From Chloroflexota bacterium (GTDB lineage: Bacteria; Chloroflexota; Anaerolineae; DUEN01): a stretch of DNA of 64,000 nucleotides. The stretch covers positions 5,034-69,033 of the forward strand of contig JAADGJ010000061.1 in NCBI GenBank assembly GCA_013152435.1, given 5' to 3'. Positions 4,322-31,714 of this stretch are shown in pieces. Every line of letters starts with the position of its first letter. Position 1 is the first letter of the stretch. Below the pieces are notes generated by a model. That model made no database searches and had not been told where the DNA came from. It was given only the letters and a program-made list of their open reading frames with translations. A program made the translations under genes and the position numbers.

Positions 4322-6340
4322 ATGTTGCGCAAGAAGTGGTTTGTCATAATGGCCGTTCTCGTGATCTCGAGCATGGTCCTCACGGCCTGTCCCTCCGGCA
4401 CTCCTGAGAAGGAGGTCGTGGAGGTCGTCAAGACCGTTGAGGTGACCAAGGTGGTCGAGAAAGAGGTCATCAAGGAGGTCGTGGTTACGCCGACGCCCGC
4501 TCCGGTGACCTTCGAGTCCCCCGACCCGAACACCATGGTCGTGGCTACCATCGGCGATCCGGAGACCCTGGACCCCGCTTTGAACTACGAGACCGCGGGC
4601 GCCAACATCATCCAGAACGTCTACGAGACCCTGGTTTACTACAACAAGGATGATGCGACCTCCTTCGTGCCCCAGCTGGCGACCGACTGGACGATCTCGG
4701 ATGATGGCTTGACCTACACCTTCACCATCCGCAAGGGGGTCAAGTTCCACAATGGCGCCGATCTGACGCCCGAGGATGTGGCCTACTCCTTCCAGCGTGG
4801 GTTGCTGCAGGGCGGTCCGGATTCGCCGCAGTGGCTGCTCACGGAGCCGTTCCTGGGTGTGGGCATTTACGACATCGCCGACCTGATCGACCCCGAGCTG
4901 GAGGGTGATCCCGAGGGCTTGCAGGCGACAGACCCCGACAAGCTGATGGAGGTCTGCCAGCAGGTGAAGGACGCCATCGTCGCGGACGAGGAGAACTGGA
5001 CGGTCACCTTCCATCTGGCACAGCCGTGGGGGCCCTTCCTGGCCACCATCGCCCAGGGCTGGGGCAGCATCATGGACAAGGACTGGGTGATCGAGAACGG
5101 TGGCTGGGATGGTGACTGCGCGACCTGGGCGAAGTACTACGGTGTGACCTCGGAGAACGATCCCTTCACCAGCATCATGAACGGCACGGGGCCCTACAAG
5201 CTGGAGCGCTGGACGCCGGGTGAGGAGATCGTCCTGGTTCGCAACGAGAACTACTGGCGAACCCCCGAGGTGGGCCCGGCCTGGGAGGGTGGCCCCGTCG
5301 GACCGGCCGCGATCGAGCGGATCGTGATCAAGTCCGTCAGCGAGTGGGGTACCCGCTTCGCCATGCTCCAGGCGGGCGATGCCGACACCGCGTACGTGCC
5401 GCGGCAGAACGTCTCCCAGGTGGATCCCCTGGTGGGTGAGATCTGCGAATATCAGGAAGACGGCTCCTTCAACTGCCAGCCTTCCGATAACCCGGATGCG
5501 CCGCTGCGGCTGTACAAGGGCATGCCTGGGGTGAGCCGCACGGATGCCTTCTTCGTCTTCAACATCAACGTCGAGGGCGGCAATCCCTTCATCGGCAGCG
5601 GCCAGCTGGACGGCAACGGCATTCCGCCCGACTTCTTCAGCGATATCCATGTCCGACGCGCCTTCAACTACTGCTTCGACTGGGAGGCCTTCATCGAAGA
5701 GGCTCTGAACGGCGAGGCGGTGCAGAACGTGGGCGTGTTGATCCCCGGCATGCTGGGGTACGACCCCAACGGGCCCAAGTACACCTACGATCCTGAGAAG
5801 TGCGCTGAGGAGTTCAAGCAGGCCTGGGACGGCCAGGTGTGGGAGAAGGGCTTCCGTCTGCAGATCGCCTACAACACCGGCAACGTCACGCGGCAGACCG
5901 TGGCCGCGATCCTGCAGGCCACCCTGGCGGACGTGAACGACAAGTTCCAGGTGGAGATCGTCGGGCTGCCGTGGCCGACCTTCCTGCGGCAGATCCGTGG
6001 CGGGCGGCTGCCCATCTTCGTCAGCGGCTGGCTGGAGGACATCCACGATCCGCACAACTGGGCGCAGCCCTTCACCGTCGGCACGTATGCTCGCCGCCAG
6101 AACATGCCTGAGGAGCTGCTGGACAAGTTCACGGAGCTGGTGAACGCGGGCGTCTCGGAGACCGATCCGGCGAAGCGAGCGGAGATCTACAAGAAGCTCT
6201 CTGAGCTGGACTACGAGTACGCCCCGGCGATCCGCCTGGCCGTGGCCACTGGCCGCCGCTACGAGCAGCGCTGGGTGCAGGGATGGTACTACAACCCCAT
6301 CTATCCCGGTACCTACTACTACGCGCTCTCTGAGAAGTAA
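4322..6340 (+). CDS. ABC transporter substrate-binding lipoprotein, family 5 (peptide/nickel, OppA/DppA-like)
   Basis: Lipoprotein signal MLRKKWFVIMAVLVISSMVLTAC. A KEVV-rich tandem repeat linker is followed by a typical family-5 SBP core. RBS AGGAGGGGAG. Confidence 0.85.
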   Translation: MLRKKWFVIMAVLVISSMVLTACPSGTPEKEVVEVVKTVEVTKVVEKEVIKEVVVTPTPAPVTFESPDPNTMVVATIGDPETLDPALNYETAGANIIQNVYETLVYYNKDDATSFVPQLATDWTISDDGLTYTFTIRKGVKFHNGADLTPEDVAYSFQRGLLQGGPDSPQWLLTEPFLGVGIYDIADLIDPELEGDPEGLQATDPDKLMEVCQQVKDAIVADEENWTVTFHLAQPWGPFLATIAQGWGSIMDKDWVIENGGWDGDCATWAKYYGVTSENDPFTSIMNGTGPYKLERWTPGEEIVLVRNENYWRTPEVGPAWEGGPVGPAAIERIVIKSVSEWGTRFAMLQAGDADTAYVPRQNVSQVDPLVGEICEYQEDGSFNCQPSDNPDAPLRLYKGMPGVSRTDAFFVFNINVEGGNPFIGSGQLDGNGIPPDFFSDIHVRRAFNYCFDWEAFIEEALNGEAVQNVGVLIPGMLGYDPNGPKYTYDPEKCAEEFKQAWDGQVWEKGFRLQIAYNTGNVTRQTVAAILQATLADVNDKFQVEIVGLPWPTFLRQIRGGRLPIFVSGWLEDIHDPHNWAQPFTVGTYARRQNMPEELLDKFTELVNAGVSETDPAKRAEIYKKLSELDYEYAPAIRLAVATGRRYEQRWVQGWYYNPIYPGTYYYALSEK

Positions 6341-25798: not shown

Positions 25799-26578
25799 TC
25801 ACTGCAGGCCCAGCACTCGGCGGCGCAGCGCCTCGTCCGGGCGGGTGTGGATGCGTGCGGCCTGCTCCTCGGTGAGGAAGTGAGGGCCGCCCAGGGCATA
25901 CGTGCCCGCTAACACGCGGGCCGTCTTGACCGCCATCGCCGTGACGTTCAGCACCTCCTGGGGGCTCTTTCCCAACGCGATGAGCCCGTGGTTTTGCATC
26001 AGGATGACCTTCGGAGGCTCCCCCCATCGATCCAGATAGGCTCGGATCTCGTCCCGAACGCGGCGCGCCAGCGGCACGCCGGGATCGACGTAGGGCACGA
26101 AGACCGGCGCGGGGCCGCATACCACGATCTCGTCGGGAAAGAGCCGCCCCGCGTACGCGGCCACCGCCGCCTGGGAGCACAGGATCGCGTTCACAGCGGT
26201 GGGGTGGGTGTGTCCCACCCACGATGCGCCTCCCTCGGTCAGCGCCAGCGCGTGCAGGACCGTCTCCACTGAGGGATGGCGAGGTGCCTTCGGATCGACC
26301 TTGGCGGCGGTCAGCCCGGCTTTCACGGCGGCATCGGAGATGTCCTCGGCCTCCAGCAGCGCCAGCGCCCGCTCGAAGGAGACCTCCACCACGCCCGTCT
26401 CGTCCAGCGTTCGTAGCTCCGCGCCGCTGGCCTTCACGAAGAACGTCTCCCCGTCGATCCGGGCAGATGTGTTCCCCTCGCCCAGGATGGCGTAGTCCAT
26501 CTCGGGCCGGCCCAATTCCCTGGACATCCAGATCAACTGGGAGAGGATCTCTTGTTTATGTTGTTCGTTCTCGCTCAT
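25799..26578 (-). CDS. class II aldolase/adducin-family protein (rhamnulose-1-phosphate / fuculose-phosphate aldolase-like)
   Basis: Start reassigned to the ATG at 26578 (MSENEQHKQEIL...). Motifs GEGNTSARIDG and HTHPTAVNAI are typical of class II aldolases. Confidence 0.65.
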   Translation of the reverse strand: MSENEQHKQEILSQLIWMSRELGRPEMDYAILGEGNTSARIDGETFFVKASGAELRTLDETGVVEVSFERALALLEAEDISDAAVKAGLTAAKVDPKAPRHPSVETVLHALALTEGGASWVGHTHPTAVNAILCSQAAVAAYAGRLFPDEIVVCGPAPVFVPYVDPGVPLARRVRDEIRAYLDRWGEPPKVILMQNHGLIALGKSPQEVLNVTAMAVKTARVLAGTYALGGPHFLTEEQAARIHTRPDEALRRRVLGLQ

Positions 26579-26588
26579 ATCGAATGCC

Positions 26589-27839
26589 TCACGCGCCGGG
26601 GTAGCCGCCGGAGGAGCCTTCGCCCGTGCCGCGCTCGCGAGCGATCTTCTCCTCGTAGCCGGAGGCGCGATGGGCGGCGATGGGATCCGGCTCCAGCCCC
26701 ATCTCCACGCGCACCTGGGCCAGCAGCGGGCGCACGTCGGTCTCGTAGGCCTGAGCCAGGATCTCATGCGCGCCCAGGACGTCGCCCTCCATCTGGGCCT
26801 GGGCCAGCGCCTCCCGATCGACCAGCAGCGCCTTGGCATAGGCCGTCTGCACGTTCATCACGGACAGGATCATGGCCTCGATCTTGGATTCGATGTTGTG
26901 CGACTGGTCGATCATGTAGGCCACATTGCGGGCGCACTCGGACACGGTGGGATCGGGGTCCTGCTCGGCCGCGATCAGCTCGTTGAAGATGAGGAACAGC
27001 TCGAAGGGGTTGACGGTGCCGACGATCAGGTCGTCGTCGGCGTACTTGCGGGCGTTGAAGTGGAACCCGCCCAGCCGGCCCTCGTCCAGCAGCAACGCCA
27101 CGATGTGTTCGACGTTGGTCCCCTGGGGGTGATGGCCGGTGTCGACCAGGACCTGCGCCTGGGGGCCGAGCTTCAGGGCCATCATGTAGGAGGTGCCCCA
27201 GTCGGGCAGGTCGGTGTGGTAGAAGGCGGGCTCGAAGAACTTGTACTCGATCAGCATGCGCATATCGGGCGGCATCGCCGCGTACACCTCCGCCAGGGCC
27301 TCCTCCATGCGGTCCTTCCGGGCCCGGAAGGAGTCCTGTCCGGCGTAGTTGGTGCCGTCGGCGAACCAGAGGCTGATGATCTCGGACCCCACGGCCTTGG
27401 CGATCTCGACGCATTCCAGCATGTGGGCGACGGCCTGCTTGCGCACGTCGGGATCCGGGTTGCAGATGGAGCCGAGTTTGTAGATGTCGTCCTGGAAGAC
27501 GTTGGGGTTCACTGCTCCGATCTTGACCCCCAGGGAGTCGGCATAGGAGATGACCTGGCCCCAGTCGTCCACCTTATCCCAGGGGATGTGGACGGCCACG
27601 GTGGGGCAGATGCCCGTCAGCCGATGGACGTGGGCGGCGTCCTCCAGCTTCTCCCACAGGTTGCGGGCCGCGCCTGGCCACGGGAACACCTTGAAGCGTG
27701 TGCCGGAGTTGCCATATCCCCACGAGGGGGTCTCCACACGCTGCGCCTTCAGGGCCGCCTTCACGGCCTCTACGTCAACGCCGCGATCTGCCAGTTGTTC
27801 GGCCAGGAGAGGATAGGCCTTCAGGTAGTCTGTGGACAT
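26589..27839 (-). CDS. rhaA: L-rhamnose isomerase (actinobacterial/Bacillus-type, TIM barrel)
   Basis: [14 protein letters not shown] motif and xylose-isomerase-like TIM-barrel architecture. First gene of the minus-strand sugar operon. RBS GGAGG. Confidence 0.55.
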
Positions 27840-28265
27840 GGGAATCCTCCATCTGGGCTGGATGGGCTGACTTGCCTCGGAAGTGTCGGCTGCGCGTCAC
27901 TGGGGGGCGTGATCGATGGCGACCTTGAGCAGGCCGGACCTGCGGTCTCCCGACCTGGAAGCCGTGGGCGAGGGCTTGTAGCGGCGATGGCGGTGTTGTC
28001 CCAAAGCGCGTGCCAGGTTTCCGATGGCATGAGCACGTCTCGATCGAGTGGATAGGGGCCAAGGAACTCAGGTGATGGGTCGACGGGAAGCGATCACTAC
28101 CCCTCCCCCCGGTCGCGCCCATTATAGCGGGGCCGCTATGGCGAGTCAAGCGATGATTCACCTCGGCCATGTGGTCATCCTAGCCTTTTGACTCCTCTCA
28201 GCGGATGGTCGAGAGCCACTGGTGACTCCCGGCGGCCACAATACGGTGATCTCTGCAGGAGGGAC

Positions 28266-29954
28266 ATGATGCGCATTGGTTTCCCGGTGAAGGTATTGGG
28301 GCAGGCCGGGCTGAAGTCCCACGATACCCGACGATGGCAGAACGCGCCCCATCTCAGCGTCAGCCTGGCGTACCTGCGGGATATCCTGAAGTATCTGGAG
28401 CGATCGGGCTTGCGCATGTACCGCATGGCCGCCGATCTGGCGCCCTATCTGGCCCATCCGGACCTGCCTGAGTTCGCCCATCAGATCGATGCGTGTGTGG
28501 AGGAATTGGCCTTCGTGGGGGAGATGGCCTCCGCGTTGGGAGTGCGGCTGTCCTTTCACCCGGGCGCCCACGTGGTGCTGAACGCCTCCGACGAAGCCGT
28601 GGCCCGGCGCTCCCTTCGCCATGTGACCGGCCTGGCCCGCATCCTGGATGCCATGGGGCAGGGCCCCGAGGCGGTCATCGTCGTGCATGTGGGGGGACGC
28701 TACGAAGATCGGGAGGCCGCCATAGCGCGCTGGGTGAGCCGATACCTCCGTCTGCCCTCGTTCGTGCGCGATCGCCTGGCGCTGGAGAACGACGACGCGC
28801 TCTTTTCGTTGTTGGACGTGTACCGCATCCATCAGCGCTGCGGCGTGCGCGTGGTGTTCGACTCCCTGCACCATCTGGTGCACAACCCGGATCGCATCCC
28901 TTTGGATGAGGCCCTGGAGATGGCATTGAGTACATGGCCGGATCATGTGCGGCCCAAAGTGCACTTCTCCTCGCCTCGGACGGAGGTGCGCCAGATCCGG
29001 ACCAAGGCAGGGGTTCGGCTGCAGCCGCCGTCCTGGACGCAGCATGCCGATTATGTGAACCCCTTTGAGTTCATCCACTTCCTGCAAGTGGCGGAGGGGA
29101 AGCGATCCTTCGATGTGATGCTGGAGGCCCGGGCGCGTGACCTGGCGGCGCTGCGCCTGCAGGCGGATCTGGCCCGTTACGCCCCGGAGTTGGCGGCTTC
29201 GCTCATGCCCTCCGCCGCCCGCGCAGCGGAGCCCGCCGAGCCGTATGCGCCGTGGCCGGAGGGGCAGGATGATGATCCCCGCGTGCTGGTGGCGGTGATG
29301 AACAACCTGCGTGATTTCGCCCTGGCCCGAGACGCGGGCTGGTATCGGATCCCGCTGGCGCGAGCCCCTCGTCTGGTGGCGGCGGACTACCTGGCGTTCT
29401 ATCAGACGCGGGTCTTCGGGGAGGAGGCCTGGGCGGTTCATTATTATGCGCCGACCCGGAGCTATCGCATTGTGACCCGCGCGGAGCTTCTGCCGGAGGA
29501 GATCGATCATCCGCGGGCGAAGGACCGTTATTACAAGCTGGAGATCGGCCCCCTGCAGCGTTTGCCGCATCCGATCCCCAGTCGGCGTCTTCGGCGGATC
29601 ACCTTTATCCCGACCACGCTATCACGCCTGTTGCACGCGGAGGAGATCAACGATCTGTGGATGGGCAATCCGATTCAGGAGCGACTGTGGGCGGAGCTGA
29701 AAGCGCAGGGGATCCTGGCCGAACGAGAGTATCCGTTAGAGGAGGGGAGGGCGTCCTATCGGGCGCCGCTCGCCGTGCCGTGTCGCACGGGGGGCGTGGT
29801 TGTAACGGCACGGGATATCCTGGGGGAGCCGTTGCCCGCGGGCTGGACCTGCCTGCGCGTCTCGTTGGATGACGATCTGGACAGGTGGCTCCGGAGCCTT
29901 CGGCGGGAGATCTCGGAGCGGGGAGGTGTGAGGGAAGCTGCGGATGACGGGTGA
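28266..29954 (+). CDS. uvsE: UV DNA damage endonuclease (UvsE/UVDE) fused to a ~250-aa C-terminal domain of unknown function
   Basis: The N-terminal ~310 aa match UVDE (MRIGFPVKVLG..SHDTRRWQNAPHLSVSLAYLRDILKYL, HPG, HVGG, ENDD). Start at ATGATG 28266 with an AGGAGGG RBS. The C-terminal region (WYRIPL...YLAFYQT...YRIVTRAELLPEE...YYKLEIGPL) is not recognised. Confidence 0.7.
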   Translation: MMRIGFPVKVLGQAGLKSHDTRRWQNAPHLSVSLAYLRDILKYLERSGLRMYRMAADLAPYLAHPDLPEFAHQIDACVEELAFVGEMASALGVRLSFHPGAHVVLNASDEAVARRSLRHVTGLARILDAMGQGPEAVIVVHVGGRYEDREAAIARWVSRYLRLPSFVRDRLALENDDALFSLLDVYRIHQRCGVRVVFDSLHHLVHNPDRIPLDEALEMALSTWPDHVRPKVHFSSPRTEVRQIRTKAGVRLQPPSWTQHADYVNPFEFIHFLQVAEGKRSFDVMLEARARDLAALRLQADLARYAPELAASLMPSAARAAEPAEPYAPWPEGQDDDPRVLVAVMNNLRDFALARDAGWYRIPLARAPRLVAADYLAFYQTRVFGEEAWAVHYYAPTRSYRIVTRAELLPEEIDHPRAKDRYYKLEIGPLQRLPHPIPSRRLRRITFIPTTLSRLLHAEEINDLWMGNPIQERLWAELKAQGILAEREYPLEEGRASYRAPLAVPCRTGGVVVTARDILGEPLPAGWTCLRVSLDDDLDRWLRSLRREISERGGVREAADDG

Positions 29955-29961
29955 TCGGGAC

Positions 29962-30420
29962 TCACGAGCCTGGTGAGGTCGAGTCCCGAGCCGGACGCGG
30001 CCGATGGCTCCTTCCTCGCCAGAACGCGATCAGCAGCGCGATGGAGACGCCGAGGATCGCCCAGATCCAGCGCGGCCATCGGGGCTGGGCCGTGATGACG
30101 ATGGGACCGTGGCGCGTGGTCACCCCCGTGGCCTCCACGTCCTCGAGCTCGTAGTAATACGTGCGCCCCGCGATCACGTTGGTGTCCGTGTAAACGTAGT
30201 GCCCGCCAGCGAGGGGATCCGAGGAGGCCGGGATCAGATCCTGATTGATCTTCTCGAAGGGGCCGTCTGGCGATTCCGCGCGGTACAAATTAAACCCTAC
30301 GGTGTCCACCTCGGTTTCAGTGGTCCACTCCACGATCACGGGGGCTCCCTGACTGGTGCAGCTGGATAGGATGACGCCGACCAGCGCCAGGCCAAGGAGT
30401 GTCCACCGCATTCCTCTCAT
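29962..30420 (-). CDS. small membrane-anchored lipoprotein, hypothetical
   Basis: Start at the ATG at 30420 (MRGMRWTLLGLALVGVILSSC lipobox). A beta-rich ectodomain and a C-terminal TM helix followed by a basic tail. Confidence 0.45.
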   Translation of the reverse strand: MRGMRWTLLGLALVGVILSSCTSQGAPVIVEWTTETEVDTVGFNLYRAESPDGPFEKINQDLIPASSDPLAGGHYVYTDTNVIAGRTYYYELEDVEATGVTTRHGPIVITAQPRWPRWIWAILGVSIALLIAFWRGRSHRPRPARDSTSPGS

Positions 30421-30627
30421 GTCCGTGTTCCTCCACGAGGGCTGTGCGAGCACCTTTCCTTCAGTGCAAAGCGATGCCGCCATGCCGGCAGTCCTGCTTG
30501 CAGCGTACCATGATTGTCCCGGTTAGGCAATCCCCCTGCAGTATGCAGAGTAGGAGCCGTCGGAAGCGGATTCTGCCCGATCATTTGCCATCATGGCGGC
30601 TCTGCATTACAATAGTGCCGGTTTCGG

Positions 30628-30650
30628 AAATAGAAACGGGAATTCTATTT
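30628..30650. promoter_or_regulatory. perfect 8-bp inverted repeat AAATAGAA-N7-TTCTATTT, candidate IclR operator
   Basis: Lies in the divergent intergenic region upstream of the IclR gene and peptide locus 2. IclR regulators bind palindromes of this size. Confidence 0.3.
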
Positions 30651-30916
30651 TCGCAGCTCATTACCTCGCAGGCCGGGACATCCGTCCTGGCCACATGGTT
30701 GATTTCTCTCCCCAAAGGCGTGGCGAACAAGTGAATGAAGAGGATCCTGCGGTCCTGCAGGAGGCGTGCGGATAGGGTGCCCCTGGAGGGCGGGTGTTAT
30801 CCTCGCGTGTAAGGGGCTTCGGGGGTTGTAGGCGCTTGCCGGAGAGCCGGGCGGTGCTCCGGCGGGGCAACCTCCTGAGCCACCGGGTGAAAACGATCCT
30901 ATGGTGTGATAGGGCT

Positions 30917-31714
30917 ATGCCGGAATCGTCCGTTTCTCATCTTAAGACGTTAGATCGGGCTCTTCAAGTTCTCTCCCTCTTCAGCGTGGAACAGCCGGAG
31001 TGGGACTACACGTGCATGGCCGAGACCCTGGGCCTGCACAAGAGCATCGTCTATCGAATCCTCACCACGTTCGAGCGGTACGGATATGTGATGCGCCAGC
31101 CGGCCAGCGGACGATTCCGTCTTGGATTCCGCTTCGTGGAGTTGGGCAACCTGGTTTTGTCCAACATCGACCTGCGTACGATCGCCCATCCCTTCATGGA
31201 GGACCTGGTGCGCGCCGTGCGTGAGACGGCCTTCCTGACCGTCGTGAGCGGCCATGAGAGCGTATGCATCGATCGAGCGGAGAGCCCGCACCTGCTCCGG
31301 CTGACCATGGAGATCGGTGGACGATATCCCCTGTACGCCGGCGCGTCGAATCGGTTGCTCATGGCCTACCTGCCGGAGGAGGAGATCGAGGCGATCATCG
31401 CCAAGGGGCTGAAGGCTTACACGCCGAACACACTGGTCGATCCCGATGCGCTACGCGCTTCCCTGGCCGAGATCCGGCGTCAGGGATATGCGTTGAGCTC
31501 CTCGGAGTTGACGCCGGGGATGTCCGCCCTCTCGGTGCCGCTCAGGAACAGCAATCACGAGGTCGTGGCCGCGCTCAGCCTGGCCGGCCCCAGCGAGCGG
31601 TTCGGCGATGATCGCTGGCCGGAGATGCTGACCCGGCTCCAGGCCACCGCGGAGGCGATCTCACAGCGGCTGCTGGCCTGGCGGGTGCCGCAGTCCGGCC
31701 GGGCCGGGCTCTGA
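30917..31714 (+). CDS. IclR-family transcriptional regulator
   Basis: N-terminal wHTH (LDRALQVLSLF...TLGLHKSIVYRILTTFERYGYV) plus an IclR effector domain. Start reassigned to the ATG at 30917. Confidence 0.8.
   Translation: MPESSVSHLKTLDRALQVLSLFSVEQPEWDYTCMAETLGLHKSIVYRILTTFERYGYVMRQPASGRFRLGFRFVELGNLVLSNIDLRTIAHPFMEDLVRAVRETAFLTVVSGHESVCIDRAESPHLLRLTMEIGGRYPLYAGASNRLLMAYLPEEEIEAIIAKGLKAYTPNTLVDPDALRASLAEIRRQGYALSSSELTPGMSALSVPLRNSNHEVVAALSLAGPSERFGDDRWPEMLTRLQATAEAISQRLLAWRVPQSGRAGL

Follow-up and report, generated by a model that had tools for sequence, protein, structure and literature searches.

A stretch of 64,000 nucleotides from a Chloroflexota bacterium (GenBank assembly GCA_013152435.1, contig JAADGJ010000061.1, positions 5,034 to 69,033; the whole stretch is hereafter called the window) carries a gene in which a UV damage endonuclease (UVDE, also known as UvsE) is joined in frame to a long C-terminal extension. 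The gene is a single open reading frame (ORF) on the plus strand, 28188..29954, of 588 aa when counted from an upstream TTG. From the ATG at 28266, it encodes 562 aa without interruption by a stop codon or frameshift and terminates with TGA at 29952-29954. The encoded protein consists of a UVDE core (residues 1-310), an acidic linker of 27 aa and an extension of 225 aa, the latter being composed of two domains. The elements of the gene are as follows.

28257..28262, plus strand: Shine-Dalgarno-like AGGAGG, with a spacing of 3 nt to the first ATG (28266) and of 6 nt to the second (28269), read from the sequence.
28266..29195, plus strand: TIM-barrel catalytic core of UVDE (UvdE/UvsE), residues 1-310 (PF03851; PDB 2j6v and 3tc3).
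28566..28571, plus strand: Ala101-His102, at the site where SacUVDE has the Gln103-Tyr104 'probing finger', located by gap-free alignment.
29196..29276, plus strand: acidic, low-confidence linker, residues 311-337 (isoelectric point, pI, 4.1), defined by AlphaFold confidence and composition.
29277..29666, plus strand: PUA-like (ASCH/EVE/YTH-type) beta-barrel, residues 338-467, basic (pI 10.0), assigned by fold and better conserved than any other part of the protein.
29667..29951, plus strand: degenerate DUF559/Vsr-fold domain, residues 468-562, with the fold kept and the motif residues lost.

The true start codon is probably the second ATG (28269), as homologues begin with MRLGF and the AGGAGG at 28257-28262 lies upstream. 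Both GC content and GC skew over the gene are unremarkable.

The N-terminal half belongs to the UVDE family. Residues 30-300 match UvdE (PF03851) with an E value of 2.6e-44 and 152 bits, above the family cutoff of 24, and the solved structures of the Thermus (2j6v) and Sulfolobus (3tc3) enzymes are matched with E values of 1e-31 to 1e-35. The NCBIfam equivalog TIGR00629 scores 118.7, just below its cutoff of 124.45, and the core also matches a PHROG endonuclease family. Among 68 fusion proteins, H98, H141, E174, D199, H202, K231, H233, H260, D262 and E287 (numbered as in the window protein) are invariant. All of these except D262 we take to be the counterparts of the metal-ligand positions and the modified lysine of TthUVDE, and E174 and K231 align to residues mutated in PDB chains 3c0q and 3c0l/3bzj. 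The UVDE half is therefore predicted to be a nicking endonuclease with its catalytic positions intact, the metal ligands and the modified lysine included.

For the extension, AlphaFold returned a confident model of residues 333-562 (predicted local distance difference test, pLDDT, 90.3; predicted template modelling score, pTM, 0.85). The model of the full-length protein had a pLDDT of 89.9 and a pTM of 0.89, with the linker as the sole internal low-confidence stretch: block means of pLDDT were 66 for residues 311-320, 47 for 321-330 and 71 for 331-340, and residues 319-324 fell below 50. The model is compatible with domains fixed in position relative to one another. We found a PUA-like beta-barrel in the N-terminal part of the extension (residues ~338-467), whose fold matches, with scores in parentheses, were AF2351 (8.6), the EVE protein PH1033 (8.4), YTHDC1 (8.3), the McrB N-domain (8.2), ZmASCH (8.2), THYN1 (6.9) and AbaSI (6.8). 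The top Foldseek matches of this domain were all ASCH or YTH proteins, the best being the ZmASCH ribonuclease and YTH readers of N6-methyladenosine (m6A) in RNA. The C-terminal part (residues ~468-555) has the DUF559/Vsr fold, as it matched the DUF559 protein 3hrl (9.4), I-Bth0305I (8.5) and Vsr (6.9).

Profile and sequence comparisons gave no such signal for the barrel. No match was found for residues 321-562 when searched directly against Pfam, NCBIfam, PADLOC and PHROGs. Nothing in Pfam or NCBIfam placed the domain in the EVE, ASCH or YTH families, either for the window copy (E up to 1) or for 171 relatives (E up to 0.01), and a family profile searched against PDB sequences hit the DUF559 tail only (3hrl, E = 6.6e-5) and no PUA-type chain. 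The PUA-like domain is thus recognisable by its modelled fold only. Seven of its aromatic and basic residues are invariant (W359, Y360, R361, Y379, H415, Y422 and R444), and they are no more than candidates for base-pocket residues. In the tail, the Asp of the DUF559 motif is replaced by P501 and C-E-G-E by T514-A515-R516-D517, the 'RE..DYDL' segment (about 15-20 residues) is deleted, and neither PF04480 nor PF18741 is matched; of 60 stand-alone relatives, 44 match the former and 34 the latter.

The original prediction, made from the letters of the window alone, had read a UVDE and a long C-terminal extension in one ORF, as is indeed the case, and had offered either a PUA/EVE/ASCH-type module or a second nuclease for the extension. 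The former is borne out by the barrel at residues 338-467. The latter holds for the DUF559/Vsr fold and fails for the activity, because the motif residues are lost and the window copy would not be a working nuclease. What had been taken for a single domain of one type or the other is two domains in tandem, with both of the proposed types present. The concern that the extension might be of low complexity or disordered is removed by the confident model of residues 333-562.

The extension is also encoded as a separate protein. A homology search with residues 311-562 retrieved 1,277 clusters. Each of the best 120 is a stand-alone protein, with a length of 236-284 aa (in most cases 245-265 aa) and 49-67% identity to the window extension. 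Those of the 120 that bear an organism name are from Chloroflexota/Anaerolineae, and some are labelled DUF559 or 'very-short-patch-repair endonuclease'. A search with the full-length protein recovered 75 fused clusters (470-627 aa, 45-77% identity) beside unfused UVDEs of ~320 aa.

To see where the partner gene resides, contigs of one genome per species were scanned with a profile of the PUA domain, which gave at least 577 confirmed stretches (577 of the 600 listed). The best 80 loci were sorted by reading frame and stop codons; all are from Chloroflexota except one metagenome-assembled genome (MAG) labelled 'Zixibacteria' and one 'uncultured bacterium'. The uvdE gene is fused in frame to the partner in 11 of the 80 loci, lies immediately upstream on the same strand as a separate ORF in 26, is found 0.4-2.6 kb upstream on the same strand in nine, and is downstream on the opposite strand in one. 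In the remaining 33 loci, no uvdE occurs within the available flank, 11 of them having less than 3 kb of upstream sequence. Among the 69 assessable loci, 46 thus have a same-strand uvdE upstream of the partner gene. At no fewer than nine of the 22 adjacent junctions examined, the stop codon of uvdE overlaps the start codon of the partner gene in a 4-nt ATGA or GTGA, and most of the other junctions are within about 10 nt. Such an overlap is the usual signature of translational coupling, which these junctions suggest, and a single event could fuse the two genes because their stop and start codons overlap.

The closest relative of the window locus, Caldilineae bacterium J4 (L006), is syntenic with 73-86% DNA identity and carries the same 562-aa ORF. 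The sequencing error or frameshift against which the original prediction had cautioned is contradicted by this second copy, and both of its expectations about homologues were confirmed: the extension is shared by 11 of the 80 species-level genomes and by 75 protein clusters from independent assemblies, and it exists as a stand-alone protein whose gene usually adjoins uvdE. The ORF is a genuine, recurrent gene fusion derived from a coupled gene pair and not an artefact.

One further locus (L011, 8651-9637) shows an ORF for the PUA domain that remains open for 329 codons upstream in a frame different from that of the overlapping uvdE. This is probably a chance opening in GC-rich DNA, and it could also be a frameshifted fusion.

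The UVDE half of the fusion has lost a functionally important element. In a UVDE-DNA complex, the finger Gln103-Tyr104 flips the lesion and the two opposite purines into pockets of UVDE itself, and mutation of the Tyr abolishes activity (PMC3553973). The window protein reads HPGAH where 2j6v and 3tc3 both read HPGQY in an alignment free of gaps, so that the Gln-Tyr finger is missing. When the state of the finger was counted by alignment across the linkage classes, its Gln was present in both reference UVDEs (Thermus and Sulfolobus, each QY), in 43 of 45 unfused Chloroflexota UVDEs (38 QY and five QH), in six of the nine loci with uvdE 0.4-2.6 kb from the partner gene, in nine of 23 with uvdE adjoining it, and in none of the 11 fused loci; among the 75 fused protein clusters, a single one retains it. 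A neighbour-joining tree of the UVDE domain, from which the finger columns were left out, has an inferred ancestor that was unfused and possessed the Gln, with about eight changes of the Gln state and six of the fusion state. Of the fused sequences, 81 belong to one clade and five to a second, and four pure clades without Gln contain adjacent-gene lineages only.

The partner half is degenerate as well. We compared the DUF559-type residues of the 120 stand-alone proteins with those of 43 long fusions: the Asp of 'VDF' is kept in 115 of the former and 25 of the latter, the Glu of 'cEGe' in 86 (plus 15 with Asp) and six, respectively, and the 'RE..DYDL' segment, present in ~110 of the stand-alone proteins, is deleted in 36 of the long fusions. 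A further 33 fused clusters (470-544 aa) lack any tail. Counted by locus, the tail motif is intact in none of the 11 fused loci, in 14 of 23 adjacent loci (eight of the nine adjacent loci that keep QY) and in seven of the nine with uvdE 0.4-2.6 kb away. In fused lineages, each half has therefore lost something, the UVDE its Gln-Tyr finger and the partner its nuclease motif or its whole nuclease domain. Among the long fusions, the PUA-like domain has the highest mean pairwise identity (0.72), followed by UVDE (0.60), the linker (0.35) and the tail (0.34), and it is thus under the strongest constraint of all parts. The two loci without a Chloroflexota label, the 'Zixibacteria' MAG (L068, MEWM01000110.1) and the 'uncultured bacterium' (L053), share an unusual state of the tail motif, D-N-K-N; the phylum label of L068 could reflect horizontal transfer or a binning error.

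The PUA-like module belongs to a larger family (993 representatives after clustering at 50%, E up to 1e-3), in which it is nearly always N-terminal and usually followed by DUF559. Rarer architectures add HhH and a RadC-like JAB domain, HEAT repeats or an S-adenosylmethionine (SAM) methyltransferase to DUF559, or have DUF3800 in place of DUF559; relatives carrying these rarer architectures are P0299, P0320, P0366 and P0274. Stand-alone proteins of about 150-170 aa that consist of the PUA-like domain and at most 24 residues after it (L048, L058, L061, L067, L076, L078, L081 and L084) occur mainly in Chloroflexales-type genomes (Viridilinea, Oscillochloridaceae and Chloroflexaceae), and the module can evidently exist without a nuclease partner in cis. 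The core family had no match in PADLOC, no relatives were found in 2.9 million viral contigs or in 72,556 plasmids, and the neighbours of the module are housekeeping genes. Neither a defence context, nor mobility, nor a known defence model, as would mark a Type IV system, applies to the module.

In the reading that we favour, and to which we give an even chance, UVDE and its partner work as one unit and recognise the substrate together. This possibility is supported by the anatomy of the protein, with its intact UVDE ligand positions and two folded domains in the extension, and by (i) the linkage of the two genes, (ii) the reciprocal degeneration of the two halves, (iii) the constraint on the PUA-like domain, and (iv) its non-mobile, non-defence context. 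It is further supported by the DNA-related nature of the other partners of the module (DUF559, and RadC/JAB with HhH) and by the importance of the finger, which flips the lesion and opposite purines and whose Tyr mutant is inactive (PMC3553973). We infer that the two proteins may act jointly in the nick-initiated (alternative) pathway of excision repair. Predicted to bind DNA, the basic PUA-like domain would probably do so in the manner of its structural relatives, by capturing an extruded base or lesion. It would supply or alter the recognition of substrates by the UVDE active site and take over part of the role of the lost finger. The Vsr-fold tail of the window protein would then be a catalytically dead scaffold, and in unfused relatives with an intact motif the tail may make a second cut. 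That the extension recognises a lesion or modified base, as the original prediction suggested, is likewise what we infer. A stronger version, in which Chloroflexota UVDE is one half of a two-part repair enzyme and a hitherto unrecognised family of PUA-like readers took over lesion or base probing from the UVDE finger, is put forward tentatively, and we consider it rather doubtful.

Several observations weigh against such cooperation. The pockets of UVDE already hold both flipped dinucleotides (PMC3553973), and an extra reader is not obviously needed; because of the same structure, we dropped a mechanism in which the lesion is flipped into solvent and is free for the reader domain. His102, which stands at the finger position, might still stack on a base. 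The association between fusion and loss of the finger comes from a handful of independent events: 81 of the fused sequences belong to one clade and five to another, and Gln was lost about eight times in all. No uvdE is nearby in 22 of the 69 assessable loci, and none was detected in the fetched flanks of the PUA-only Chloroflexales loci, the flanks of L076, L078 and L084 being short upstream. Finally, the 80 loci were all chosen for carrying the partner, and the UVDEs of partner-less genomes are represented by the two PDB references.

The main rival to this cooperation is an operon shared by two repair nucleases that act independently. The partner would be a Vsr-like nicking enzyme complete in itself, with a PUA-like domain for a target of its own (e.g., a modified or deaminated base); the two genes would be neighbours only because both products feed nicked DNA to the same resynthesis pathway, and fusion would merely tether them, with the reader not acting on UVDE substrates. 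The retention of the DUF559 motif in stand-alone members, the frequency of partner genes without uvdE nearby, the occurrence of the PUA-like and DUF559 core with other C-terminal additions, and the ownership of the lesion pockets by UVDE (PMC3553973) are all as this view would have it. Nevertheless, independence does not account for the disappearance of the motif from 11 of 11 fused loci, or of the tail from 33 fused clusters, alongside a reader that stayed the most conserved part, nor for the coincidental loss of the UVDE finger. A reader without its own nuclease, moreover, needs UVDE for any effect. We consider two independent nucleases to be unlikely. It is more improbable still that RNA is the target of the PUA-like module, which would then be an ASCH-type ribonuclease, an N4-acetylcytidine (ac4C) amidohydrolase or a YTH-type m6A reader, and that its link to uvdE is regulatory or incidental. 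In favour of this view, the ZmASCH ribonuclease and YTH m6A-RNA readers are its best Foldseek matches, and ASCH proteins are reported as RNases and tRNA ac4C erasers.

A modification-dependent (Type IV) restriction nuclease, or a selfish element resembling a homing endonuclease, might also have landed beside uvdE. This is very improbable, given the absence of the core family from the PADLOC matches and of relatives from the viral contigs and plasmids searched, the housekeeping neighbours, and a position that is conserved, with translational coupling to uvdE, across classes of Chloroflexota; besides, the nuclease decays where the reader is kept. Lastly, two overlapping genes might have been joined by a frameshift introduced in sequencing or assembly; given the 4-nt overlap in relatives, one indel would suffice to fuse them. 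The same fusion is nevertheless seen in 75 clusters and 11 species genomes, including the syntenic L006, and the fused forms share a dedicated linker of ~27 aa as well as derived deletions in the tail, which make such an artefact scarcely credible.

The fusion gene is divergent from a minus-strand sugar-catabolism pair (25802-27839), a class II aldolase (PF00596) and a RhaA-like isomerase (PF06134/PF01261). In the intergenic region of 426 nt, the sole sigma-70-like site (TTGACT-17-TATAAT, 11/12, 28121-28149) faces this pair and not uvdE, and no promoter-like site was found on the plus strand for the fusion gene. SOS control of the fusion gene was considered and rejected: GAAC-N4-GTTC occurs 18 times in the window against 18.0 expected by chance, and none of the matches is upstream of the gene. 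The aldolase/isomerase pair has 84-86% DNA identity to L006, versus only 73% for the fusion gene. In two other lineages, uvdE and the partner gene are separated by a gene for a class II aldolase (L001, 4786-5571; L002-L004, about 5000-5800 or 1699-2499). We rejected a synteny shared with the window, as the aldolases are only 22-23% identical; they are paralogues, and the context is coincidental. Downstream, a convergent ORF of 173 aa (29965-30483, minus strand) ends 7 nt from the stop codon of the fusion gene. It had no Pfam match, and hydrophobic segments are visible by eye near both ends, so its product may be secreted or membrane-anchored. Just past this ORF (about 30250-31000), GC content drops to about 0.57-0.58.

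In the textbook view, UVDE initiates alternative excision repair as a single protein, and we know of no accessory factor for it. The loci described here provide a conserved, translationally coupled and repeatedly fused partner of UVDE across much of a bacterial phylum, with fused UVDEs that have lost residues thought essential for damage probing. In other settings, the PUA-like fold serves as a reader of epigenetic and epitranscriptomic marks. If the reader indeed contributes to recognition, a damage-specific nuclease would have been assembled in a new manner, and the PUA-like fold would have acquired a new task. The stronger version outlined above would yield a modular 'reader plus nicking nuclease' enzyme of excision repair, with a substrate range possibly unlike that of classical UVDE. 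A modified-base reader fold would then have been recruited to the recognition of DNA damage, and the fused forms would record the reciprocal subfunctionalisation of two nucleases into one. In current annotation, the fusion appears simply as 'UvsE', and the partner is called either 'DUF559' or a 'very-short-patch-repair endonuclease'. These names obscure the connection between the two, and a domain that in many cases is inactive receives the wrong label.

The window gene is the fused form of a conserved two-gene module of UVDE and partner that has apparently gone undescribed so far. A screen published in 2019 mentioned in passing that fusions of PUA domains with Vsr nuclease domains exist, and left the combination uncharacterised (PMC6765204), and a census of EVE domains mentions neither UVDE nor Vsr (PMC7641849). 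Our literature search found no paper joining UVDE/UvsE with PUA-like, EVE, ASCH, YTH or DUF559 domains.

Compared with known systems, the window protein shares the TIM-barrel family PF03851 with UVDE/UvsE/Uve1 of Thermus thermophilus (2j6v), Sulfolobus acidocaldarius (3tc3/4gle) and Schizosaccharomyces pombe (Uve1), and like them it would be expected to incise DNA on the 5' side of UV photoproducts, namely cyclobutane pyrimidine dimers (CPD) and 6-4 photoproducts (6-4PP). Characterised UVDEs are about 300 aa long and act alone, whereas the window protein has Ala-His in place of the Gln-Tyr probing finger and adds 225 aa of C-terminal reader and pseudo-nuclease. S. pombe Uve1 has an extension at its N-terminus. 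The tail has the same fold as DUF559/Vsr-fold endonucleases (PF04480; 3hrl; Escherichia coli Vsr, 1cw0); stand-alone relatives match the hidden Markov models (HMMs) of DUF559 and MTES_1575, whereas the window copy has no HMM match and has lost the conserved Asp and Glu. A PUA-like barrel is likewise joined to a nuclease in the EVE-HNH protein VcaM4I, in McrB with its YTH-like N-domains, and in the SRA-like AbaSI and PvuRts1I, and relatives of these types flip a base into a pocket. Unlike in those enzymes, the module in the window resides in a housekeeping context, its Vsr-fold domain is degenerate, and the nuclease with which it is partnered is the repair enzyme UVDE.
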